Below are positions 1-24,554 of a stretch of DNA of 64,000 nt, one piece after another (positions within the stretch are counted from its first letter, which is position 1; each line of letters starts with the position of its first letter). Made by a program: the position numbers and the translations under genes. The stretch is from Escherichia phage FV3, in sequence record NC_019517.1; one strand, 5' to 3'. Under the pieces are notes generated by a model that was not told the origin of the DNA, made no database searches, and was given only the letters and a program-made list of their open reading frames with translations.

Positions 1-396
1 GGGAGATTTAGGAGCCTTCTTGTCCGTTTCCACACATAAACTTTAACCAAACTCGCGCGGGAGTCTCTCAACCGACTCCTTACGGCGCTGGCAAGCTTTC
101 GTCGGTGGTCCACATTAGTGCTCGGCCTTTGGCCTGCGCTATCGCTTCGCTCCCACACATGTTAACAGTCCTGCATGTATGCACTCCTGTTATTGTGTGC
201 ACTATGGAGGCCCGGCATCTCGCCCCTCGTAGGCGAGTGCCAATGAGGGGCCGACACTACCCATAATAAGTAATAAATTTAAAACATGGTACTTAGGATC
301 TAGTATATTCTACATAAGTTAAGTATATGTACTTTAGTACCATAAGTACTAGATCTTTTATTTTTATTATTTAGTTATTTTAGTTATATTCTTTAT

Positions 397-482
397 GTGT
401 CCGTATTGCGGACAGTTAGTGTCCGTATTACGGGCAGATGTGCCCGCGTGACGGACAGTAGTGTCCGTATCACGGACAGTTA
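397..482. repeat. three tandem copies of an imperfect palindrome GTCCGTAT-N-ACGGAC; middle copy carries a nested CGGGCA/TGCCCG palindrome (coordinates approximate)
   Basis: read directly from the sequence; lies in non-coding DNA 3' of the minus-strand operon. Confidence 0.6.
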
Positions 483-553
483 CTATCCTCTGCTCTTGGG
501 TGGACATAAAACATACGAATCCTTATAGTACAGATATTTAAGTTTTTACTGGT

Positions 554-904
554 CTAACCAGTTGTTGACATTAGAATAACCTCTTCTGGTGGCAAAACTT
601 TGGAAAATGTGCATCTTTTACCTCTCCCTTGTGTGGATATTTCAACCACTCCTGCACATTCTAAAGTTTTAACGCACGCTGCTGCTTTTGTTTTCTTTAT
701 CCCAACATCTGCTGCAATTTTCCTTGTGCTTGGTGTGAAGCGTGAATTTCCTCCAAGCTTATACCAGTTGTGCAGGTAGCAGTATACGATCTTGTCATAT
801 AAGTCAAGAACAACAACCTCCCCGGTTGTGTCATTCAAAACTTTTGACATAGACAGTATTTCAAGGGGGACTTTAAGATATAGCAGCTTATCCCCATCTT
901 TCAT
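554..904 (-). CDS. hypothetical protein, possible winged-HTH DNA-binding protein (116 aa)
   Basis: track ORF, last gene of minus operon; basic helix-rich C-terminal half; no firm motif. Confidence 0.4.
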   Translation of the reverse strand: MKDGDKLLYLKVPLEILSMSKVLNDTTGEVVVLDLYDKIVYCYLHNWYKLGGNSRFTPSTRKIAADVGIKKTKAAACVKTLECAGVVEISTQGRGKRCTFSKVLPPEEVILMSTTG

Positions 905-951
905 ATCTCCTGATTCTCCTTGTGTGGCAATTTTCTTTAAAATAGCAGGGA

Positions 952-1506
952 TTACTCCCCGCTGTCAATAGCAAGACTCATTGCAATACGGTATGCCTCT
1001 TCTAATGGTAAGAGTCTCCCCCACACATCCCAACCGACATCAAACTGCCTGCCAAACAACTGCTGTGTGGTTCCGTGAGCATGACCGAACAGTTGGACTG
1101 ATCCGTGAGGCTTTCTGTTCCACTTTGCAAACTGGTAATGGCTCATACAGATCAAATTCTTGTTGTGGCGAAGCTCGTAATAATCTACAACCTCATGACC
1201 GAACTCTTTCATAATTCTGACAGTCGTCCTTGTGTCATGGTTACCACGAACAAGAATAATATGTCCGTTCAACATATTTAGAACATCTGGGAGCAATTTG
1301 TTGATATTCTTATCCTTAGTGCATGCAATATCGCCCAAGTGAAACACAGTGTCTTCCGGTGACACAACAGAGTTCCACTCGGCGATGATTCCTGCATTCA
1401 TACTGTCAAGATTGCGATCATACTGAGATCTGTGTTTTTGACATGAATCAAACTCCATGACTCGCTGGTGGAGAAAGTGTGTATCGCTTGTTACAAAATA
1501 TTTCAT
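952..1506 (-). CDS. calcineurin-like metallophosphoesterase (Ser/Thr or polynucleotide 3'-phosphatase)
   Basis: motifs DTHF, GDI, GNHD, GHAHG typical of the calcineurin/lambda-phosphatase superfamily. Confidence 0.8.
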   Translation of the reverse strand: MKYFVTSDTHFLHQRVMEFDSCQKHRSQYDRNLDSMNAGIIAEWNSVVSPEDTVFHLGDIACTKDKNINKLLPDVLNMLNGHIILVRGNHDTRTTVRIMKEFGHEVVDYYELRHNKNLICMSHYQFAKWNRKPHGSVQLFGHAHGTTQQLFGRQFDVGWDVWGRLLPLEEAYRIAMSLAIDSGE

Positions 1507-1513
1507 ACATCCC

Positions 1514-1924
1514 TCATTTTAGTTTAATGCAGTTTTTAAGCTCACGCTCCATACGGTCCACAACCCTATTTGGAACATCATGAATGCTCTTATTACCGTG
1601 GCGGTTTTCAACCACGATCACAGTATAACTATACCCATGACTGATTGCCATGTCAACATATTCTTGCACATGTTTTTCTTTTGTAAACGTATTACTTACC
1701 ACGACACGGTCGTATCCCATACGCATCATATCTTCTACGTTATCTTTGCACCATTTTGCTGCAAGTGTTACTTTACTTGCATCCCAGTTGTAATTTCCAT
1801 CGTCGTCGTACCAGAACATGTCGTTCTCAAAATGTGGGTACAGCCCCTCTAAAGATAGTGCATTTGCCAGTGTTGATTTGCCAGAACCTGGTAGACCACG
1901 CACGATATATAGCATTTTAGACAT
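1514..1924 (-). CDS. P-loop kinase, polynucleotide 5'-kinase-like
   Basis: Walker A GLPGSGKST at N-terminus; size and layout like the T4 Pnk kinase domain; SD GGAGG upstream. Confidence 0.6.
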   Translation of the reverse strand: MSKMLYIVRGLPGSGKSTLANALSLEGLYPHFENDMFWYDDDGNYNWDASKVTLAAKWCKDNVEDMMRMGYDRVVVSNTFTKEKHVQEYVDMAISHGYSYTVIVVENRHGNKSIHDVPNRVVDRMERELKNCIKLK

Positions 1925-1952
1925 AGTATTCCTCCGTTTTAATTTTAATGGT

Positions 1953-1981
1953 AGTATACATAACTCTTTTGTTCATTTCAA
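1953..1981 (-). promoter_or_regulatory. sigma70-like promoter for minus operon (TTGAAA-N17-TATACT on minus strand)
   Basis: hexamers read on reverse complement, about 25 nt upstream of the kinase ATG. Confidence 0.5.
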
Positions 1982-2024
1982 GTGTTGACACGAGTTTATT
2001 TGTGTGGCAAGATAGAGTGACAAA

Positions 2025-2960
2025 ATGGCAAACGAGGAATGTATGATGAAGTATTTTAATGCAGATGATTTGGTGGATAAAGGTCTTGTAACCAGTCGGT
2101 ATTATCCAGATCTTGGATTAAAGATCTATAAATATGCCAGAAAAGTATTCTACAACAATTTATGGCATTTGTCTCCGCGTTTACTAGAGTGCCGAGGAAT
2201 TGTTGTCGGTAATGAAGGAAATGTTGTGGCATGGCCCTTCACAAAAGTGTTTAACTTGGGAGAAAATTCCACCAACCTGCCTGACAATAAACTTGTGACG
2301 GCGGTAGAGAAAAAGAACGGATTCCTTGGTGTGGTATCATCTCACAAAGGTGAACTGTTGTTCTCAACAACCGGGTCTCTTGATTCTCCATATTGTAACC
2401 TTGCAAAGGAAACAATCCAGGAGCAATGTGGTAATTTAGATCTTATCAAGAAGGTTATGGGCCATGAAAACATGACATTCATGTTTGAAATTTGTCACCC
2501 TTCAGATCCGCATATTGTTCAGGAAGATCATGGCGCATATTTGATAGGTTTCAGATATAATGATTCTGGAATAATGCTACCAGAAGCAGCTTTAGATGGG
2601 ATTGCCAAATACCTTGGTGCAAAACGTCCTCACACTGTGCGTGAAATTCCGTTCAGCTATGCAAAAGAATTAGCTGCAGAAACAAGAGGTGAAGGGTATA
2701 TGATTCGTAAGCCTTACTACCCTTATGATCTGCAGCTGAAGATCAAGTCTCCATACTATTTGGCACGGAAGGCCGTAATGAGGGGTAAAGCTTGGAAGAT
2801 TTGGGATAATGATATCTTTAAACGTGTTGACGAAGAGTTTTACGGCATGGTAAACTTCATTCGTAGAAACTACACAGAAGATGTGTGGAATTGCCTCCTG
2901 GAGCAGGAACGCCGTGAGATACTTGACTGCTATTTCCACAACGAGGACTATATGCAATGA
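2025..2960 (+). CDS. RNA ligase, Rnl1-like nucleotidyltransferase
   Basis: motif I KKNG (Lys about residue 97, as in T4 Rnl1 Lys99), motif IV EGYMIRK, motif V LKIK. Confidence 0.6.
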   Translation: MANEECMMKYFNADDLVDKGLVTSRYYPDLGLKIYKYARKVFYNNLWHLSPRLLECRGIVVGNEGNVVAWPFTKVFNLGENSTNLPDNKLVTAVEKKNGFLGVVSSHKGELLFSTTGSLDSPYCNLAKETIQEQCGNLDLIKKVMGHENMTFMFEICHPSDPHIVQEDHGAYLIGFRYNDSGIMLPEAALDGIAKYLGAKRPHTVREIPFSYAKELAAETRGEGYMIRKPYYPYDLQLKIKSPYYLARKAVMRGKAWKIWDNDIFKRVDEEFYGMVNFIRRNYTEDVWNCLLEQERREILDCYFHNEDYMQ

Positions 2961-3307
2961 AGAAGTTGATTGTGTGGCTGGATGACTTGAGAGATCCGTC
3001 AAATTATGGGCTCCCAGATGCTCTTTGGCTAAAGAATTCCTCTGAGTTTATGGATTTTATTAACGATAAGGGAAAGCTCTACAGGCGCGTTTCTGAGTGG
3101 CACATGGACAACGACCTTGGAGAGGTATTTGAAGGGTACGATTGCCTATCTATGCTGGAAGAAAAATTTGTATTTGGTAAGCCTCCTGTAGTTGACAACG
3201 TGAAGATTTTCGTGCATACTTCTAACCCATCAGCCGCTCGTAAATTCATGCTTGCTGCTGACTCGTTTAAAAAGTTTGGAATAGAGATTAAACAAAACAT
3301 CTACTGA
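2957..3307 (+). CDS. hypothetical protein (116 aa)
   Basis: track ORF overlapping stop of upstream gene; no recognised motif. Confidence 0.4.
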   Translation: MKKLIVWLDDLRDPSNYGLPDALWLKNSSEFMDFINDKGKLYRRVSEWHMDNDLGEVFEGYDCLSMLEEKFVFGKPPVVDNVKIFVHTSNPSAARKFMLAADSFKKFGIEIKQNIY

Positions 3308-3315
3308 GGACACTT

Positions 3316-4077
3316 ATGCGACGACTGATCATTATCTCCGGTGCTGGTTTGAGCGCTGAATCTGGTATCCCAACTTTCCGATCTGGTGGCACTGCAATGT
3401 GGGAGAATTTCAGCATCGATGAGGTGTGTAACATCCACACCTTTGCCAAGAACTACTATAAGGTACATGACTTTTACAATGCACGGCGTGTAGCTTTGGG
3501 GAGTGTTGAGCCTAACCTTGCACATCTCCGGATCGCTGAGTGGTATTCCCGCTGGTCTGGTCGTGTGATCAACCTGACCACCAATGTAGATGATTTGCTG
3601 GAGCGTGCTGGTGTAAAACATGAAGATATTTTGCATGTCCACGGGTATTTGCCAGAAATAGTTTATGAGGATGATGAAGGGAATGACGTCATTAAAGACA
3701 TTGGATACTCTGAGGTAGATGCAAGCGAGTATACTTGGGTCAAGCCTAATGTAGTGTTCTTCGGAGAAGTAGCTCCAAAGTATGTAGACATGTATGACCT
3801 GTTGACTTCTCTGACGAGCAATGATATGGTTATCCTTGTAGGGTGCTCCAACACAGTTATCAATTTTAACTGGGAGCTATTCCCTGCCTGTAATAAGGGG
3901 ACTAAACTACTGATCGTTAACAAATACGACTCACAGCATTTAGGGGAGAATGGCATTTCACGTAGTGACATTTACCAGTATGAGGATCGCGGAATCCCAG
4001 TTTGGTTTAACGGGGCGGTTGACGCTTTCTCTGATAAAACATTCATTGACATCGTAGAAAACTTTATGGAACTGTAA
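3316..4077 (+). CDS. Sir2-family NAD-dependent deacylase / ADP-ribosyltransferase
   Basis: sirtuin motifs GAGLSAESGIPTFRS, TTNVDDL, HVHG, PNVVFFGE; no Cys4 zinc-ribbon seen. Confidence 0.85.
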   Translation: MRRLIIISGAGLSAESGIPTFRSGGTAMWENFSIDEVCNIHTFAKNYYKVHDFYNARRVALGSVEPNLAHLRIAEWYSRWSGRVINLTTNVDDLLERAGVKHEDILHVHGYLPEIVYEDDEGNDVIKDIGYSEVDASEYTWVKPNVVFFGEVAPKYVDMYDLLTSLTSNDMVILVGCSNTVINFNWELFPACNKGTKLLIVNKYDSQHLGENGISRSDIYQYEDRGIPVWFNGAVDAFSDKTFIDIVENFMEL

Positions 4078-4091
4078 GCGGAGGCCTTTTA

Positions 4092-4805
4092 ATGCTGAAT
4101 ACTAAACTGATCGACAACCTGGAAAAACTGTCTCAGCCTGAAAACTACCTTTGGTCTGCCAACTGGGTGGAAAATTGGAACCGTGTAGCAGCTAAAGTGA
4201 AAAAATCATACACACCATTCGAACTTCAGCTGAGTTTCATTGAGGAAGAGTTCAATGAAGTTTTGGAAGAGTTGGAGAAAGGTGATGGTGGGGATCATCT
4301 CCTAAAAGAGGCCTGCGATCTTCACGTTGTCACAAGTTATGCCGCTTATCTTGTTAACGATAACCATGAAAAGTGGTCAAACCTGTTTGATAATCCGCGA
4401 GGTCTTAAGTTTAAGATCGGTGAATTTTATGATACACTGATCGCTGCGAAAAATACCTCTAAGCAAAGAGCGTCTGCTTACCGCTTAGCAGAGTTGTCAA
4501 CAGCTTTGCTGTTCCAGCTTCGCGGTGATGTGTGCGGGATGATGCGGAAGGTTCTAAAATCTAATGACAGCAAGTTTGCACGCGTCAACCATCTGCGGTA
4601 TTCACACGGTGCCAGTGCAGATATGCCTGCTGAACAACTCATCGAGTTGGAGATTAAAGATCTTGAGCGACGCTTTGATGGTCGCTATGAAGGTTTTGTT
4701 GCTAAAGAAGAATTCTACAACGGAAATAAAGTTATCATATTCCTCGACAGTAAAGGTAAGATTATGAAGCCTTCGAGCTTCAAGGATGTAACAGAATATA
4801 TTTAA
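4092..4805 (+). CDS. hypothetical protein, possible MazG-like NTP pyrophosphohydrolase
   Basis: EEEFNEVLEELEKGD...KEACDLHVV resembles the EExxE...ExxD pattern of MazG/all-alpha NTP-PPases; weak. Confidence 0.4.
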   Translation: MLNTKLIDNLEKLSQPENYLWSANWVENWNRVAAKVKKSYTPFELQLSFIEEEFNEVLEELEKGDGGDHLLKEACDLHVVTSYAAYLVNDNHEKWSNLFDNPRGLKFKIGEFYDTLIAAKNTSKQRASAYRLAELSTALLFQLRGDVCGMMRKVLKSNDSKFARVNHLRYSHGASADMPAEQLIELEIKDLERRFDGRYEGFVAKEEFYNGNKVIIFLDSKGKIMKPSSFKDVTEYI

Positions 4806-4811
4806 TAACAT

Positions 4812-4840
4812 AGCCGGGGTGATCCCGGCTTTACTTGTTT
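4812..4840 (+). terminator. rho-independent terminator
   Basis: hairpin AGCCGGG-GTGA-TCCCGGCT followed by T-rich tract just after stop at 4805. Confidence 0.6.
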
Positions 4841-4869
4841 CGGAAAGTATGCAAGTGAGGTAGAAAGTT

Positions 4870-5178
4870 ATGTACAAGCACTCTAGAGATCTTGAAAACG
4901 ATGCTGTGTTTGGTGATCAGATGAAAGAATTGGTTAAACTTATAGGTAGGATAGAGGATAAGTTTGACACTAAGATCTACATCGACAGCAAAGTATTCAA
5001 CCACAAAATATGGACAAATTTGTGTGTTGGACTACATGGGGATAAAGATGTGGTAAATTTAGTTGTAATTAAGTTCATAGTGTGGCAGAATAAGACTATA
5101 AGTTATTACGATCCGCACCTGCTTGTTTACCCGATAAAAGACCTATTAGAGAAGGAGGACTGCAATGCCGTTATTTAA
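4870..5178 (+). CDS. hypothetical protein (102 aa)
   Basis: track ORF with SD; no motif. Confidence 0.35.
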   Translation: MYKHSRDLENDAVFGDQMKELVKLIGRIEDKFDTKIYIDSKVFNHKIWTNLCVGLHGDKDVVNLVVIKFIVWQNKTISYYDPHLLVYPIKDLLEKEDCNAVI

Positions 5179-5434
5179 TCTTGCTAAACCTGTAGAAGCA
5201 CACCAGTTTGACGGAAGCTCTTCATCAGTATCTGATCTGCAACGGTGGATTGATACAGGTGTGTTTACATCGTCACCTGTTCGAACCAGAGATATTCTTC
5301 GCATGTGTGAGCTTGTCGAGCCGTTTGGTAACCTGGTCTTGTACCAAGGGGATTGGTTAGTTGACTTTATGGGAGACTGGTTGGTAATGAGCAAAGAAGA
5401 GATGTTTAAAATTTTTAAGGAAGAGGCTGAGTAA
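5165..5434 (+). CDS. hypothetical protein (89 aa)
   Basis: track ORF, SD AAGGAGG upstream; no motif. Confidence 0.4.
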   Translation: MPLFNLAKPVEAHQFDGSSSSVSDLQRWIDTGVFTSSPVRTRDILRMCELVEPFGNLVLYQGDWLVDFMGDWLVMSKEEMFKIFKEEAE

Positions 5435-6717
5435 TGCATCAGATCAAAACAACACTGTACGCACTGAACAAAGATGGCAGCTACCAACAGTGGAAAGTAT
5501 TCACGGATGGTGATAAGGTTATCGTAGAGTTTGGCAAGCTTGATGGTAAACTGCAATACAAAGAGACGATCTGCACACCTAAGAACGTGGGTCGTGCCAA
5601 TGAAACTACAGCTGAGCAACAGGCTGAGCTGGAAGCGATCAGTAAGTGGGAAAAACAAGTCCGTCTGGGGTATGTTGAAAATATGGAAGATTGCGAGCAG
5701 GGCGTTGACCTTTTACCCATGCTGGTGCATGACTACCTGAAGCGTGGAAAGGCACTTAAATTACCTTGCTGGATCTTGCGTAAGTTAGATGGCCTTCGTC
5801 TACTTGTTGTTTTCCAAAATGGGGAGCCTAAATTTATTTCCCGTGGTAATAAGTCCTACCCTATTCAAGGAAAGCTTCTGGAGCAACTTCGTTCTTTCCA
5901 CTTCACCACCGGGATTAAACAGCTCGACGGAGAGATCTATATTCATGGTCTGCCTCTGCAGAAAATAGTGTCTCTTGCTAAACGGTGGCGCACACAGGAA
6001 GAGATTCAGGCCGAGATCGATAAAGACTACGAGGCAGATAAAAAACGCCGTCATGCCGCAATTAAGGCAGGCTTATCAACATACAAAAACTTCAATAAGG
6101 TAGATATCCCTGTTGATGTTGAGCCTGTTCGTGATGATTTGCGTTACGGAGGGTACTGTAGCTATGACTTAGAGTATCATATTTTCGACATCCCTAGTGA
6201 CAAGGTATGGTGGGATCCGGAAACAGAATCTGGACGATGCAAGGATCTTATGGATGCAGAAGATACCATTACCACTCTGATGCTTGACCATATCAAGGTT
6301 GTTGACGCAGAGCTTGCGTACACAGCTGATCATTGCGAAGAATCTGTTGGTGTATTCATGTCCGAAGGATATGAAGGTACTATCATGCGTAACTTCTGTG
6401 GTAAATACGAATACGGTCAGCGAACATCTGAAGCATTGAAATGGAAAAAGTTCAACGACGCAGAGGTGAAAGTTATTGACGTTGAGAAAGATAAGAATGA
6501 TGAAGGTGTTCTTATCTGTGTTGACAAGGAGGGTGTTGTTGTTAAAATGAAGATGAAAGGCACGCACGAGGAGCGTAGCTATGACAGGATGCAGGAAATG
6601 ATCGGCAAGTTTGTCACCTTCAAATATCAAGCAAGGACAGAAGACAACAACTACCAATTCCCGGTCGGTATCTGCGTCCGAAATGTTAATCCAGACACTT
6701 GGGAGGTGCTGGAATAA
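5434..6717 (+). CDS. ATP-dependent ligase (covalent nucleotidyltransferase), probably DNA ligase
   Basis: motif I KLDG, motif III LDGEIYIHG, motif IV EGTIMR, motif V LKWKK. Confidence 0.65.
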   Translation: MHQIKTTLYALNKDGSYQQWKVFTDGDKVIVEFGKLDGKLQYKETICTPKNVGRANETTAEQQAELEAISKWEKQVRLGYVENMEDCEQGVDLLPMLVHDYLKRGKALKLPCWILRKLDGLRLLVVFQNGEPKFISRGNKSYPIQGKLLEQLRSFHFTTGIKQLDGEIYIHGLPLQKIVSLAKRWRTQEEIQAEIDKDYEADKKRRHAAIKAGLSTYKNFNKVDIPVDVEPVRDDLRYGGYCSYDLEYHIFDIPSDKVWWDPETESGRCKDLMDAEDTITTLMLDHIKVVDAELAYTADHCEESVGVFMSEGYEGTIMRNFCGKYEYGQRTSEALKWKKFNDAEVKVIDVEKDKNDEGVLICVDKEGVVVKMKMKGTHEERSYDRMQEMIGKFVTFKYQARTEDNNYQFPVGICVRNVNPDTWEVLE

Positions 6718-6868
6718 TGTAGGTATGTTTAGTAGATAACGGTAGCCAATTGAATGAGTGTTTTCAATTGGCACCTGCATATGCCCTGATGTATGCACTG
6801 TGCAACATAGCCACACTATGTAGTGGTGCTGATCGGGCTCGTTATGAGTGAACTGGAGAGTATGAAAA

Positions 6869-7357
6869 ATGAAACTTGATAAAAATGTTCAACGAAAAGC
6901 TTTCTTGGATATGATCGCATATTCAGAAGGCACAGATAATGGTAGACAACCTACCAATGATCGGGGATACGATGTTATAGTCGGTGGCAAGCTGTTCAGC
7001 GATTACAGCAAGCATCCGGGTGTTTACGTTAAGCTAAATGCTAAACTTACCTCTTCTGCTGCTGGGCGTTACCAGATTTTGGAGAAGTTTGCTAAACACT
7101 ACATGAAACAGTTAGGATTACCAGATTTTGGCCCTGCCAGTCAGGACAAGATTGCGTTGCAACTGATCCGTGAGTGTAAGGCGCTCGATGATATTGATGA
7201 AGGTCGTATTCACCAAGCTATTTATAAATGCCGCAGCCGCTGGGCAAGCTTCCCACCACCGCCAGGGGCTGGAAAGCTGTACAATCAGCGAGCAGAAAGT
7301 ATAGACAAGATGCTGGATATCTTTAAGAAGTCAGGTGGAGTTGTTACGGATGAGTAA
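6869..7357 (+). CDS. endolysin, lambda R-type lytic transglycosylase
   Basis: near-identical blocks to lambda R: QRKAFLDM, SEGTDNGRQ, GYDVIVGG, GRYQ. Confidence 0.9.
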   Translation: MKLDKNVQRKAFLDMIAYSEGTDNGRQPTNDRGYDVIVGGKLFSDYSKHPGVYVKLNAKLTSSAAGRYQILEKFAKHYMKQLGLPDFGPASQDKIALQLIRECKALDDIDEGRIHQAIYKCRSRWASFPPPPGAGKLYNQRAESIDKMLDIFKKSGGVVTDE

Positions 7358-8033
7358 CGTGATTGACTGGTGGAGTGTCTTTAGATACGACACAGGCACT
7401 GGAAGGTTGTTTTGGAAGGACCCGCCAAAAAACAAACCTCAACTAGTGGGAAAGGAGGCTGGATGTACTAACATGGACGGGTACAGGGATATAGTCTATC
7501 GTGGCGTGCATTACTACAGGCATAGATTGGTGTGGGAGATGCATTATGGACCAATCCCAGAAGGGTATGAAGTTGATCACATAAAGCCACTTTTCTATTC
7601 CGATGGTGTTGCTGATGATAGGGTAGAAAACCTACAACTGTTAACACCAGAAGAAAACGCAAAAAAGGCGGCAGATGACGGATGCCTGGCACGTAAGATA
7701 CCTAAATCCAATACTGGACACTTGGGTGTATATTTTCATGCTAGGACTGGAAGGTATGCTGCTTTTGGTAAGGTAGGTCATTACTATAAGAAAGACCTAG
7801 GGGAGTACGATACCTTAGAAGAGGCCATTGCTGCTCAAAAGTCTTTTGAAAGTGGCACGTTTGTCAGGGAATATCGTGGACATCCTTTAGGGAGGGATAA
7901 ATCTAGAGGTGTCAGATTTGAAGCAGATAGAGGCAAATGGAAAGTAACTTTCAGAGGAAAAACGTTAGGTAGGTTTGACACCAAAGAGTCTGCTGAAGCG
8001 TGTTACGCAAAGGCTCTTGCTGAAAGATTGTAA
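7335..8033 (+). CDS. free-standing HNH homing endonuclease with AP2-type DNA-binding repeats
   Basis: HNH block EVDHIKP...DRVENLQLLTPEENAKK; two AP2-like repeats (GVYFHARTGRYAAFGK, GVRFEADRGKWKVTFRG). Confidence 0.8.
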   Translation: MELLRMSNVIDWWSVFRYDTGTGRLFWKDPPKNKPQLVGKEAGCTNMDGYRDIVYRGVHYYRHRLVWEMHYGPIPEGYEVDHIKPLFYSDGVADDRVENLQLLTPEENAKKAADDGCLARKIPKSNTGHLGVYFHARTGRYAAFGKVGHYYKKDLGEYDTLEEAIAAQKSFESGTFVREYRGHPLGRDKSRGVRFEADRGKWKVTFRGKTLGRFDTKESAEACYAKALAERL

Positions 8034-21360: not shown

Positions 21361-21639
21361 ATGAGCTGCGAAAAATCTTTTTTCATCATCATTTACGGTA
21401 AGGATAACTGCCCACATTGTGTAAGAGCAAAAGAATTTGCAGTCAGTAAAGGCATACCTTTCGTATACAAGACGCTAGGTGAAGGATACACAAAAGAAGA
21501 GCTTATCGAGAAGTGTAGCCCATTTGTTCCCAGAACGTTGCCTCAGATCTTCTTGGAAAGCAACCTTGACAGTATCCACATAGGTGGTGCTGACGATTTC
21601 ATCTCTTTTGTTAAGAATGGTTTTGGAGAGAAAAAGTGA
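21361..21639 (+). CDS. glutaredoxin/NrdH-like redoxin
   Basis: CPHC active site near N-terminus, 92 aa, between nrdB and nrdD. Confidence 0.75.
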   Translation: MSCEKSFFIIIYGKDNCPHCVRAKEFAVSKGIPFVYKTLGEGYTKEELIEKCSPFVPRTLPQIFLESNLDSIHIGGADDFISFVKNGFGEKK

Positions 21640-22496
21640 AAGTTGTAAAACGGGACGGTAGAGAAGAGTTTTATAACGGAATTAAGGTGATCAAGGCGGC
21701 AGAGTCCGCCTTACTTGAGTCTGGACATACTGAAGAAGAAGCTTACCGGATTGCCTGTGCGGTTAATGAAGTTGTTGCCAACAATCTGCCAACTGACCAG
21801 TGCACGATCTCTGTAAAAAATATCCATATCCTTGTTGAAGATGCTCTTATGGATATGGGTTTAAAATGTGCAGCCAGAGAATACATCCAGTATAGACAGA
21901 CAAGAGATAATAACAGAGAGGCAGGTGGAAAACTGCTTGCCGATATTAGTGGCTTCTTGGATCGTACTTGTGATGAATTTACAAAAGAAAACGCAAATAA
22001 GCCTACTAATCATGTACACACTCATCGTGACCTGCTTGCAGGAATCCTTAGCAAACATCTTGCATCAACACAGATCCTGCCAGACCGTGTCTCAGAAGAG
22101 CACAACAAAGGCTTCATCCATGTGCATGATCTTGACTACCTGATCAGTCCGTTAACAAACTGTTGTTTGGTGAATTATCCGGATATGCTGGAAAACGGAT
22201 TCAACATTGGCAACGCCCATGTCAGTAAGCCGAAGTCAATAGGGGTTGCAACAACAATCCTTAGCCAAATCTCTAGTGCAGTAGCTAGTGCTCAATATGG
22301 CGGTCAGACCATGAGTCATATTGATCATTATTTGGCACAGTATGCTGAAGCAACTTATGAGAAGAACCTTAAATTTTGTCAGGAACATTGGTTGCCAGAT
22401 GCTGAGACTGTTGCAATGCAAATGACAGATAAAGACGTGTTTGATAGTATGCAAACTTTGCTCTACCAAATCAATACGTTAACTTCTGTCAACGGT
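21636..22496 (+). CDS. nrdD: anaerobic ribonucleotide reductase NrdD, exon 1
   Basis: ATP cone VVKRDGREEFY; ends ...INTLTSVNG; track stop TAA is the first three intron nucleotides. Confidence 0.8.
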
Positions 22497-23294
22497 TAAC
22501 AAACTGGCCGTTGTAAAACTCTCCTAACCTCATAAGAGGGGTCGGTAAATCCGGCTAACGGGGAACGCTAAGGCGAAAGCTATGCCAATCCCGTGACTAG
22601 TTCTTACAGGAGTTGGAACGGTTGTAACGACTAACGAAAGGCAGAGATGCTTGACAAACATTTCTGAACCGAGTAGTGTAGGGGTTAGTTGAAATACTAA
22701 CTTCGAAAGGGAGAGACTCTATGAAAAAGATCATTCTTAATGGTGAAGAATCGAACTACGTGATTGATGAGGTGGGAAACGTATACGGAAAACGTGGAAT
22801 GCTGCACCCCATATTGTGGGGAGGTTATGGAAAAGGTAACAAGCATGTTAAACGCCGCTATATGTATTCTTTCAACCACAAAGGTAAGAAGATTCGAATC
22901 CAAACTTCAAGGGTTGTTGCCTTGTATTGTTTGCCAGATGTCCCAGAAGACCCTGAAAACTGGGAAGTGAATCATAAAGATGGCAATACATTGAATGATC
23001 ATCCGTCTAACCTAGAGTGGGTTTTGCCGGAAGATAATAAGAGACATGCTTTCCGAACAGGGCTTTGTCCAGGCAAGTGCTACAGGAAAGTGCAGGCATA
23101 CCAAGGGAAAACCTTGGTGGGTGAATATCCTTCACTCTATGCCTGTGCAAAAGCCTTAAATTTGAACGTAGGGAACGTCCATAGGGCTATCGAAGGAAAT
23201 GCCGAAGGTAAGCATCTCACAATAAAGGGTTATTATCTTATTGAAGTAGAGTAAGAGATAGTCTGGCCCTGTGGAAACACAGGGGTGGAGACAG
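22497..23294 (+). mobile_element. group I intron in nrdD carrying an HNH homing endonuclease ORF
   Basis: P1 pairing CAACGGT with GGCCGTTG, R-like GACTA and S-like GAGATAGTC elements, P9 hairpin with GAAA loop, terminal G; boundaries inferred. Confidence 0.65.
22721..23254 (+). CDS. intron-encoded HNH homing endonuclease
   Basis: HNH block EVNHKDGNTLNDHPSNLEW; C-terminal DNA-binding module; SD GGGAGAG. Confidence 0.85.
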   Translation: MKKIILNGEESNYVIDEVGNVYGKRGMLHPILWGGYGKGNKHVKRRYMYSFNHKGKKIRIQTSRVVALYCLPDVPEDPENWEVNHKDGNTLNDHPSNLEWVLPEDNKRHAFRTGLCPGKCYRKVQAYQGKTLVGEYPSLYACAKALNLNVGNVHRAIEGNAEGKHLTIKGYYLIEVE

Positions 23295-24554
23295 CAGACT
23301 CCATTCATCACATTAAGTTTAGGGCTGGATACTTCGGTCTTTGGTAGAATGATTACCAAAAACTACTTGAAAGTTCACAAAATGGGTCTTGGTGAAGAAC
23401 GGATCACACCTGTGTTCCCTAAAGTGCTGTTCTTCTTAGAGGAGGGTGTCAACATGAACCCTGGGGATCCTAACTACAATTTGAAACGATTGGCCCTAGA
23501 ATGCTCTGCAGAGCGGATTTATCCTGACTTTGTTTCTGTTCCGCTAAATCGTAAAGTGACAGGTTCAACAGACGGCAAAGTAACAAGCATGGGATGTAGG
23601 TCGTTCCTTGGCAAATACGTTACCCCGGAGGGTGATGAAAAATACCTTGGCAGATTCAACTTGGGTGTTGTTAGCCTTAACCTACCAATGATTGCGGCAA
23701 AAGCTAAGACGGAAGGTATTGATTTCTTTGCAGTTCTTGACGAATACTTGGATCTTGCATACGAGGCTCACCTTGTAAGGGTTAACCGTCTAAAAGGAAC
23801 AAAGGCAGGGCAGAACCCTATCATGTGGTGTGAAGGAGCTCTTGCTCGCCTGGATCCTGAAGAGAGTATCGATAAACTCTTCTATGACGGGTACGCTTCC
23901 ATCAGTATTGGGTATATTGGTGTGTATGAAACCTGTCAGATTTTGGGCAGAGAGGGTGACAAGGCTTTAGCTCTTGGAATCCTTCAGCACATGAAAGATG
24001 CTTGTGATCGATATAAGAAGGAAAGTGGACTAGCATTTAGCTTGTACGGCACACCTTCTGAGAGTTTATGCTATAAAGCTGCAACCTGTCTGGATCGTGA
24101 ATACCCAGAAGTGTTGAAGCACGAGCATGAATACCTCACCAACAGTTTCCATCAGCCGGTATGGATCAATAGCTCGCCTTTTGATAAGTGGAAGTATGAG
24201 GAAGGTTTTGCTATGATCTCCTCTGGTGGCAACATTGGGGACATAGAGACACCGAATCTGAAAAACAACTTAGATGCTTTAGAAGCTCTTGTTGATTTCG
24301 GATATAAACATATTATGTATTTTGGTATTAACCAGCCTGTGGATAAATGTCTTAAGTGTGGATTCTCTGGCGAGTTCAGTGCAACAGCTAAAGGCTTTGT
24401 ATGCCCAGAGTGTGGAAACCATGAAGAAGGAACGATCAGTGTGATCAGACGCGTATCCGGGTATCTGTCCAGTCCAAACTCCCGCCCTTACAATAAGGGT
24501 AAGCAAGCTGAGGTTATAGAACGGGTTAAGCACTACGGAAGTTGTGGTTGCTGA
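23295..24554 (+). CDS. nrdD: anaerobic ribonucleotide reductase NrdD, exon 2
   Basis: QTPFITLSLGLDTS aligns with E. coli NrdD QVPFSSLNFGTDTS; Zn ribbon CLKCG...CPECG; glycyl radical motif RVSGYL. Confidence 0.8.
   Translation, partial: QTPFITLSLGLDTSVFGRMITKNYLKVHKMGLGEERITPVFPKVLFFLEEGVNMNPGDPNYNLKRLALECSAERIYPDFVSVPLNRKVTGSTDGKVTSMGCRSFLGKYVTPEGDEKYLGRFNLGVVSLNLPMIAAKAKTEGIDFFAVLDEYLDLAYEAHLVRVNRLKGTKAGQNPIMWCEGALARLDPEESIDKLFYDGYASISIGYIGVYETCQILGREGDKALALGILQHMKDACDRYKKESGLAFSLYGTPSESLCYKAATCLDREYPEVLKHEHEYLTNSFHQPVWINSSPFDKWKYEEGFAMISSGGNIGDIETPNLKNNLDALEALVDFGYKHIMYFGINQPVDKCLKCGFSGEFSATAKGFVCPECGNHEEGTISVIRRVSGYLSSPNSRPYNKGKQAEVIERVKHYGSCGC

Follow-up and report, generated by a model that had tools for sequence, protein, structure and literature searches.

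A cluster of genes in Escherichia phage FV3 raises the question of whether this phage repairs broken RNA with a set of separate proteins. The cluster lies near the start of a 64,000-nucleotide stretch of the phage sequence (record NC_019517.1), the whole of which is called the window here. It includes a metallophosphoesterase gene and the gene of a P-loop kinase of the polynucleotide kinase (Pnk) type on the minus strand, and the gene of an Rnl1-type RNA ligase on the plus strand. We think it likely that the locus encodes a phage system for the repair of RNA breaks, in which separate proteins heal the broken ends and seal them. We infer the enzyme activities, and also the target, which would be transfer RNA (tRNA) cut by anticodon nucleases. 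An initial annotation, made from the sequence alone, had proposed such a split set of 5'-kinase, 3'-phosphoesterase and Rnl1-type ligase; the four open reading frames (ORFs) that it named are all found where it placed them, with family matches well above what chance would give, and the set is supported by homology, fold, linkage and gene fusions.

The locus is already known as a computational prediction, being annotated and present in comparative-genomics papers. It is counted as known because Iyer, Burroughs, Anantharaman and Aravind (2022, Viruses 14:1977; PMC9503650) explicitly list the neighbourhood. Their section 3.7.3 describes it in Escherichia phage V5 as a predicted RNA-repair system, within a sirtuin-centred 'type 2' neighbourhood that has Escherichia phage V5 and Proteus phage Mydo as its prototypes. 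A 2025 Pakpunavirus paper also proposes that the kinase and ligase serve tRNA repair, it remarks on the missing phosphatase domain and does not mention the phosphoesterase. In our literature search no experiments on these proteins from rV5-like phages came to light.

The ligase matches the Pfam family RNA_lig_T4_1 (PF09511) with an E-value of 5e-15 and PHROG 562 with an E-value of 1.6e-65. A profile search for the Rnl1 family had been suggested as a check, and in it the Pfam gathering score of 28.3 is passed with 56.4 bits. The motifs on which the ligase assignment had been based are all present, KKNG at 2310-2321, EGYMIRK at 2691-2711 (with the EG of motif IV at 2691-2696) and LKIK at 2736-2747 (with the KIK of motif V at 2739-2747), and motif III, FEIC, lies at 2484-2495. 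Counting residues from the ATG at 2043, Lys90 of KKNG is the predicted adenylylation site. Residues R51, K68, F70, K90-x-N92-G93, T110-G111, E149, E217-G218 and K233-x-K235 are invariant in two sets of homologues (17 and 40 sequences, 41-50% identity). The family profile aligns to residues 32-249 of T4 Rnl1 (hhalign, probability 98%, E-value 3e-13), the T4 sequence used being 100% identical to the T4 records. In this alignment K90/G93, E149, E217-G218 and K233/K235 fall on T4 K99/G102, E159, E227-G228 and K240/K242, and R51, K68 and F70 fall on T4 R54, K75 and F77. These last three T4 residues are said to be essential from mutational work. The AlphaFold model of the ligase has a predicted local distance difference test (pLDDT) score of 93.6, its predicted fold is nearest to RNA ligases by a wide margin, and among ligases Rnl1 is closest. 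Searches of the PDB with the single sequence or a narrow profile were uninformative for both the ligase and the kinase, and the structural relationships given here for these two proteins rest on wider family profiles, hhalign and fold searches.

The kinase was described initially as a P-loop kinase of the Pnk type, and the family matches, motifs, alignments and folds agree with this. It matches Pfam AAA_33 (E-value 6.5e-11) and PHROG 2071 (E-value 6.5e-58), with a weaker match to the polynucleotide kinase family PHROG 505. The P-loop GLPGSGKST (1871-1897, residues 10-18) is nearly invariant in 40 homologues, Asp35 in the sequence ENDMF (1814-1828) is invariant, and a lid motif, ENRHG, is found at 1595-1609. 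The kinase profile aligns to residues 1-142 of T4 Pnkp (hhalign, probability 96%, E-value 3e-9), and here the two P-loops coincide. With both HMMER and hhalign Asp35 falls on Asp35 of T4 Pnkp, the catalytic residue that activates the 5'-OH (D38 in CthPnk, the kinase of Clostridium thermocellum Pnkp). The invariant Arg108 of ENRHG aligns to the T4 lid residue R122, and the position aligned to T4 R126 is variable. The AlphaFold model (pLDDT 90.9) has its best Foldseek matches to T4 Pnk (1ly1, 2ia5), CthPnk (4jt2, 4gp6) and PSTK, with template modelling (TM) scores of 0.72-0.77, those for 1ly1 and 4jt2 being 0.73-0.77. In the PDB the family profile matches two Mucorales kinases, Pnkp1 of the Pnkp1-Rnl-Hen1 complex, T4 polynucleotide kinase, PSTK and CthPnk. 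The protein is 136 residues long and consists of a kinase domain only, with no C-terminal DxDxT HAD 3'-phosphatase domain. It belongs to a very large family of stand-alone kinases of about 130 residues, of which at least 7,990 relatives were scored, and family members elsewhere adjoin a phosphoesterase gene or lie near a HAD_PNKP phosphatase gene.

The phosphoesterase matches PF00149 (E-value 5e-7), PF12850 (E-value 3e-7) and PHROG 547 (E-value 1e-51). All five metal-ligand motifs are present: SDTH (1477-1488), LGD (1330-1338), GNHD (1234-1245), SHY (1135-1143) and GHAH (1075-1086). In 12 homologues D8/H10, D59, N89/H90, H123 and H142/H144 are invariant or nearly so. The Pfam matches and the complete set of metal-binding motifs bear out the calcineurin-type metallophosphatase that had been placed at 952-1506. 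A kinship to the phosphatase of CthPnkp had also been implied, and this does not hold: the nearest solved structure is Aquifex aq_1665 (1xm7, E-value 3e-19), which is the sole clear solved relative, and neither the CthPnkp phosphatase (4j6o) nor lambda phosphatase (1g5b) is matched by the phosphoesterase profile. Identification as PdeM, YfcE or a lambda-type phosphatase was ruled out, the scores being far below the cut-offs. PMC2190708 describes a clade of this superfamily with demonstrated 2',3'-cyclic phosphodiesterase and phosphatase activity. Judged from its profile matches the phage phosphoesterase belongs to a different clade, because only aq_1665 matches and not the CthPnkp or lambda phosphatase. 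We propose that it is a 3'-end healing enzyme for 2',3'-cyclic phosphate or 3'- or 2'-phosphate ends, and phosphoesterases of the aq_1665 type may form an RNA 3'-end healing family common to phages and to Neisseria and Moraxella commensals.

The association of these three genes is conserved far beyond phage FV3. A scan of viral contigs (IMG/VR) with the ligase returned 17 loci, and in 16 of them phosphoesterase, ligase and kinase genes occur together. In 15 of these 16 the ligase is 41-46% identical to the FV3 protein and all three genes share a strand, the stop codon of one often overlapping the start of the next. The other triad contig (L009) has an 89% identical ligase and the same divergent layout as the window, and the seventeenth locus (L025) has a phosphoesterase and a ligase gene with no kinase detected. 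Pseudomonas Pakpunavirus, Vibrio Cetovirus (Demerecviridae) and Acinetobacter Saclayvirus also have the triad, with its genes in other orders. KP12-like Klebsiella phages carry on one strand the series phosphoesterase-x-x-Rnl1-cREC-kinase-Sir2-DNA ligase (cREC being a cyclic-phosphate-processing receiver-like protein), and the layout in rV5-like phages accordingly resembles a single operon that has been locally rearranged. A phosphoesterase gene accompanies the ligase gene in all 21 of the distant phage and viral loci examined. In Streptomyces phage Beuffert a related ligase is found with a T4-type Pnkp that carries HAD_PNKP.

Further evidence comes from bacterial gene fusions. When the ligase profile was run against 185,579 species genomes of bacteria and archaea, 80 loci were obtained. 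In 49 of them the ligase is fused to the kinase in a protein of about 492 residues, found in Neisseria, Moraxella, Kingella, Eikenella and Cardiobacterium. A phosphoesterase gene of the same type is found a few kilobases (kb) or less from the fusion gene in 46 of the 49, and a Ro60/TROVE gene lies upstream in at least 29, some loci also having a Nudix gene. The loci of the Neisseria and Moraxella type resemble an operon for RNA repair in bacteria, akin to the phage set. At a further 26 loci, in Leptolyngbyaceae, kinase, phosphoesterase and ligase are joined in a triple fusion of about 712 residues. Its kinase and phosphatase domains are CthPnkp-like (4gp6, E-value 3.5e-11; 4j6o, E-value 2.5e-24), and RtcB is encoded near 11 of the 26, often about 1.6 kb downstream. 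The place of the phosphatase is thus filled elsewhere by a HAD domain, in the T4-type Pnkp of the Streptomyces phage, or by a CthPnkp-type phosphoesterase, in the cyanobacteria. That unrelated enzymes occupy this place is consistent with a role in 3'-end healing.

The core consists of the kinase, the phosphoesterase and a short Rnl1 ligase, and recurs in at least five groups of phages and, as fusion proteins, in bacteria. There is a strong case that these proteins would act in one pathway of 5'-phosphorylation, 3'-dephosphorylation and sealing of RNA, because the genes are fused, because they stay neighbours in shuffled orders and because the phosphatase has been replaced by unrelated phosphatases. 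A fourth conserved component was looked for and rejected. The candidates were a conserved 138-residue ORF (PHROG 38203) between the ligase and kinase genes in one viral contig (L010, 10876-11289) and eight others, a 73-residue ORF (PHROG 5447) that is often found between the phosphoesterase and ligase genes of phage contigs, and a 176-residue ORF in Neisseria. Each of these insertions is confined to particular lineages, and they show no relationship to one another or to cREC.

How the system would work can be set out in steps. Host RNA polymerase would read two divergent promoters, probably early in infection, going by their consensus matches. Metal-independent RNases leave one end with a 2',3'-cyclic phosphate and the other with a 5'-OH, and a host enzyme of this kind, for example an anticodon nuclease, would cut tRNA or another RNA. 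The Pnk-type kinase would phosphorylate the 5'-OH, as its homology, conserved P-loop and catalytic Asp suggest. The aq_1665-type phosphoesterase would clear the 3' end to a 3'-OH; gene context points to this step, and CthPnkp and lambda phosphatase show that the superfamily is capable of it. The ligase would then adenylylate itself at Lys90, activate the 5'-phosphate and seal the break, as its motif conservation and fold suggest. A tRNA cluster (Thr-TGT, Lys-TTT, Tyr-GTA, Arg-TCT) lies about 3 kb from the cassette in the near-identical phage Gotham (L001, 1-615), at a place that would fall about 2-3 kb to the left of the first position of the window; within the window itself ARAGORN detected no tRNA genes. 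Several of the tRNA species in this cluster are known targets of anticodon nucleases. A related ligase gene in a Streptomyces phage also sits in a tRNA cluster, beside a T4-type Pnkp gene. We expect tRNA to be the target because of this site, the cluster in near-identical phages and the precedent of tRNA repair in T4 (PMC2610378).

Several points weigh against this reading. The nearest solved relative of the phosphoesterase, aq_1665, is uncharacterised. The kinase has no equivalent of the arginine for the substrate phosphate (Arg38 in T4, Arg41 in CthPnk): the stretch after Asp35 contains no Arg, the family consensus being DMFF.D.DGNY. The invariant Thr110 of the ligase (TTGS) aligns to T4 Lys119 (KSKGS) with no gaps near by, and Lys119 is reportedly essential in T4 Rnl1. 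The ligase has 305 residues against 374 in T4, the hhalign match ends at T4 residue 249, and the C-terminal helical residues, about 65 in number, do not align, so that there is no counterpart of the T4 tRNA-specificity domain (residues 255-374). With the NCBIfam equivalog model for RnlA it scores 39 bits against a cut-off of 242. From its sequence the ligase appears to be a member of the Rnl1 clade yet not an orthologue of T4 RnlA, because the equivalog cut-off is missed, Lys119 is absent and the C-terminal tail is short. The promoters assigned in the locus are consensus-level matches only. Most loci have an ATP-dependent DNA ligase gene about 1-3 kb or less from the triad, and for this reason a role at DNA ends keeps some plausibility. 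Finally, for none of the three subfamilies did the literature search turn up biochemical or genetic data on any member.

The ligase operon does not end with the ligase. The initial annotation had set its right boundary at 2960, which truncates an operon that continues to 4805 and leaves out a cREC gene, a sirtuin gene and a MazG-like gene. The cREC protein matches PF20274 (E-value 4.5e-14) and PHROG 1479 (E-value 9e-35), and has acidic residues in LDD (2978-2986) and DND (3107-3115). The cREC domain was defined in PMC7824862, where its linkage to RNA ligases is noted. The sirtuin matches PF02146 (E-value 8e-27) and PHROG 2162 (E-value 8e-109), it retains the GAGLS..GIPTFR, TNVD and HG motifs (NAD+-binding, catalytic His) and has only three cysteines, therefore it seems to be without the usual four-cysteine zinc module. 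The MazG-like protein matches PHROG 671 (E-value 5e-22), with only a faint Pfam match to PRA-PH; Iyer et al. (PMC9503650) name MazG among the members of this neighbourhood. All three genes accompany the ligase gene in one operon in Vequintavirinae and in Klebsiella and Proteus relatives. Most triad lineages have neither a sirtuin nor a cREC gene beside the triad, on which ground cREC and Sir2, and with them MazG, are taken as lineage-specific add-ons to the core.

These add-ons probably widen or assist 3'-end clean-up, this being the least certain step. In the proposal of Iyer et al., cyclic phosphates are resolved by cREC, and the sirtuin takes the part of KptA in removing 2'-phosphates; the idea of the sirtuin as a KptA is thus already published as a prediction. 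An NAD+-dependent form of the pathway in Vequintavirinae can be imagined, in which the 2',3'-cyclic phosphate would be opened by cREC to give a 2'-phosphate. The zinc-less sirtuin would take this 2'-phosphate away by ADP-ribosyl transfer, as an RNA 2'-phosphotransferase in place of KptA/Tpt1, and the phosphoesterase and MazG would clear the by-products. We regard this extension as doubtful; it has no specific support from the data here, because most triad lineages manage without a sirtuin or cREC.

The same accessory genes could be taken to mean that the region is a mixed counter-defence island, in which the accessory enzymes, and possibly also the phosphoesterase and kinase, act on small-molecule immune signals or on NAD+ or ADP-ribose derivatives. 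The cREC, sirtuin and MazG families are linked to NAD+/ADP-ribose or nucleotide metabolism, and calcineurin-like phosphodiesterases that degrade nucleotide signals have been proposed in other phages. Pakpunavirus, Cetovirus, KP12-like phages and many uncultured contigs also have genes of NAD+ salvage, for phosphoribosyl pyrophosphate (PRPP) synthetase and nicotinamide phosphoribosyltransferase (NAMPT), directly next to the triad. However, a counter-defence island does not account for the fusion of the kinase, and in cyanobacteria also of the phosphoesterase, to an RNA ligase, nor for the persistence of the triad in lineages without cREC and Sir2. We think this explanation unlikely for the triad, it may still hold for Sir2, cREC and MazG alone.

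The triad could also be a DNA-end repair unit. The kinase and phosphoesterase would then heal 5'-OH and 3'-phosphate DNA ends made by host nucleases, and the ends would be sealed by the ATP-dependent DNA ligase encoded downstream or by the Rnl1-like enzyme. The closeness of DNA ligase genes to the triad, noted above, agrees with this, T4 Pnkp acts on DNA as well as RNA, and the phosphoesterase has a weak match to PdeM (TIGR04123, E-value 2.5e-4). However, that match scores 20 bits against a cut-off of 150, and the gene invariably found beside the kinase gene or fused with it is that of an Rnl1-type ligase, not of a DNA ligase. The predicted fold of this ligase is also closest to RNA ligases, and bacterial homologues adjoin the RNA-repair markers Ro60/TROVE or RtcB. 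In the window DNA sealing is covered by the separate ATP-dependent DNA ligase, and we consider a DNA-end unit quite improbable. It is more improbable still that the genes are merely neighbours in an early-gene region and that the 'RNA ligase' acts chiefly in attaching tail fibres, as T4 gp63 does in its second function: 'tail' is the category of PHROG 562 and GenBank product names include tail attachment, but these names were transferred from T4 by homology, the ligase gene lies among genes of nucleotide metabolism and repair and not among tail genes, the same subfamily is fused to a kinase in bacterial chromosomes, and all catalytic ligase residues are strictly conserved.

RNA repair by the triad remains the reading that we favour, and the arrangement of its genes in the window can now be described (Table 1). 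The gap between the kinase and phosphoesterase genes is 7 nucleotides, an operon of these two genes on the minus strand is plausible from this layout. The spacer between the kinase and ligase genes is 100-118 base pairs (bp) long and contains back-to-back promoter-like hexamers. On the minus strand the candidate promoter has a -35 element TTGAAA (1981-1976), a 17-nucleotide gap and a -10 element TATACT (1958-1953), and the Shine-Dalgarno sequence GGAGGA precedes the kinase ATG. The plus-strand candidate, found by eye, has a -35 element TTGACA (1986-1991), followed by 17 nucleotides ending in TG and an extended -10 element TGgCAAGAT. In phage Gotham a PhagePromoter site is annotated at the same position. 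The divergent transcription of the ligase gene from the region shared with the kinase gene, as first proposed, agrees with the strands and with these consensus matches. The ligase probably starts at the ATG at 2043 or 2046, because a Shine-Dalgarno sequence GAGGA lies upstream at 2034-2038 and the GenBank entry of phage Gotham has its start at 2043. On the plus strand the gene order is ligase-cREC-Sir2-MazG. The ligase stop codon overlaps the cREC start codon (ATGA), the sirtuin gene follows 8 nucleotides on and the MazG-like gene after 14 more. The operon runs to a terminator-like hairpin, and an ARNold terminator is annotated in phage Gotham at the same place. None of the eight ORFs scanned with Pfam between 554 and 6717 carries a methyltransferase domain such as would indicate Hen1, and the small ORFs at 4870-5178 and 5165-5434 have no Pfam match.

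Table 1. Features of the locus and of related loci. Positions are those of the window unless a locus number (L) is given; assignments are predictions on the basis named.
Feature	Position	Strand	Basis
Winged helix-turn-helix (wHTH) protein, 116 residues	554-904	minus	HTH_36/DUF6945 near threshold, PHROG 12838
Predicted stand-alone binuclear metallophosphoesterase (MPP), aq_1665 type, 184 residues	952-1506	minus	Pfam, PHROG 547, metal motifs
Predicted stand-alone Pnk-type kinase, 136 residues	1514-1924	minus	AAA_33, PHROG 2071, hhalign, fold
Divergent control region, 66% A+T	1925-2042	none	promoter scan and direct reading
Predicted Rnl1-clade ATP-dependent RNA ligase, 305 residues	2043-2960 (ORF opens 2025)	plus	PF09511, motifs
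cREC (cyclic-phosphate-processing receiver-like) protein, 116 residues	2957-3307	plus	PF20274, PHROG 1479
Sirtuin (Sir2) family protein, 253 residues	3316-4077	plus	PF02146, PHROG 2162
MazG-like nucleotide pyrophosphohydrolase, 237 residues	4092-4805	plus	PHROG 671
Terminator-like G+C-rich hairpin, T-rich tail	4812-4830	none	terminator scan
Separate ATP-dependent DNA ligase	5434-6717		Pfam
PRPP synthetase/NAMPT beside the triad	L027 5322-8148; L028 7285-8900; L007 1-1809; L012 11782-12657		
Kinase-Rnl1 fusion, Ro60/TROVE upstream, aq_1665-type phosphoesterase downstream	L044 3738-9401 and 48 similar bacterial loci		
Kinase-CthPnkp-type phosphatase-Rnl1-type ligase fusion	L091 4726-9644 and 25 similar loci		Pnkp-like architecture, different ligase domain

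The fourth ORF of the initial annotation encodes a small wHTH-like protein, which had been counted as a member of the minus-strand operon. The ORF exists, its membership of the repair set did not stand up: the gene is not conserved with the triad. Its place in the operon is uncertain because a gap of 47 nucleotides separates it from the phosphoesterase gene and it has its own promoter-like site (968..939). No wHTH gene lies beside the triad in any of the distant loci, nor in the contig with the 89% identical ligase. The protein matches HTH_36 (E-value 2e-5, 24.6 bits against a cut-off of 25) and DUF6945 (E-value 5.5e-6, 26.9 bits against a cut-off of 28) just below threshold, and PHROG 12838, labelled 'replication initiation protein', with an E-value of 1e-79. 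Immediately 3' of the gene are four tandem repeats of 21-22 bp (395-480), each with the palindrome GTCCG-N5-CGGAC, and beside the array is a very A+T-rich stretch (262-394), a layout like that of iterons and an unwinding element. The palindrome clusters only at 399-477 and nowhere else in the window. A role for the wHTH protein as regulator of the cassette was rejected, the palindrome not being present in the divergent promoter. The wHTH gene is probably a neighbour and not part of the repair set, and it may be tied to an origin-like or operator-like element at 395-480.

The locus is widespread among close relatives of phage FV3. Positions 400-4900 of the window have 94-98% nucleotide identity to about 120 phage genomes in GenBank, nearly all of them Escherichia Vequintavirus (rV5/FV3-like myophages), with about 95-97% identity to phage V5. 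Product names already given to the locus in GenBank are 'RNA ligase 1 and tail attachment protein', '3'-phosphatase, 5'-polynucleotide kinase', 'phosphoesterase', 'Sir2-like protein' and 'transcriptional regulator'. At the ligase, between 18 and 23 GenBank records with the label 'Campylobacter phage' (C12 and A141 among them) share about 97% identity with the coliphage sequence, and these host labels look doubtful. Elsewhere in the window an ORF for an HNH homing endonuclease (22721-23254) interrupts NrdD, the anaerobic ribonucleotide reductase, which is left as two ORFs (21636-22499 and 23271-24554), and Rfam gave no group I intron at gathering score in the split gene (21636-24554). A second HNH endonuclease ORF (HNH_3 with an AP2-like domain) lies at 7335-8033, about 0.6 kb downstream of the ATP-dependent DNA ligase gene. 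Rfam found no credible structured RNA in positions 1-7000 or in the whole window.

Defences that cut tRNA are a major arm of bacterial immunity; among them are PrrC, RloC, PARIS, some retron effectors, Cas13 and colicin-type toxins. Against these, phages use replacement tRNAs or RNA repair, and the rV5-like phages, which are used in therapy and biocontrol, carry both side by side. The present analysis adds a picture of core and accessory genes and the differences from T4 at the level of residues. The three small proteins are experimentally tractable, and from work with them a new family of enzymes for RNA 3'-end healing could be defined and the published idea of the sirtuin as a KptA checked.

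The system can be compared with several that are already known. The type 2 neighbourhood of PMC9503650 is the same locus and does not differ in gene content; it lists a T4-like tRNA ligase, cREC, a nucleotide kinase, a sirtuin, MazG and a calcineurin-like phosphoesterase, and all six genes lie within 952-4805. That account centres on the sirtuin and calls the phosphoesterase 'occasional', whereas our survey centres on a core of phosphoesterase, ligase and kinase, with cREC and the sirtuin as lineage-specific genes.

In T4 the pair of Pnkp and Rnl1 counters PrrC. In phage FV3, unlike T4, the kinase and phosphatase are separate proteins and the genes are split across a divergent promoter. The phosphatase is a predicted binuclear metallophosphoesterase and not a DxDxT HAD domain, the ligase is without the C-terminal tRNA-specificity domain and Lys119, and the kinase is without Arg38. 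Fungi and plants use Trl1 with Tpt1/KptA, whereas the phage locus has no 2H cyclic phosphodiesterase and no KptA/ART domain.

Bacterial Pnkp, which in Clostridium thermocellum occurs with Hen1 and which is also known from the Pnkp1-Rnl-Hen1 complex, has the same trio of domain types as the phage set: a Pnk-type kinase, a calcineurin-like phosphoesterase and an ATP-dependent ligase. The phage proteins differ in being unfused, in having an Rnl1-type ligase and a phosphoesterase of the aq_1665 clade, and in that Hen1 is not evident in the cassette ORFs scanned. The cyanobacterial relatives combine kinase, phosphoesterase and ligase in a single chain, of which the first two domains are CthPnkp-like.

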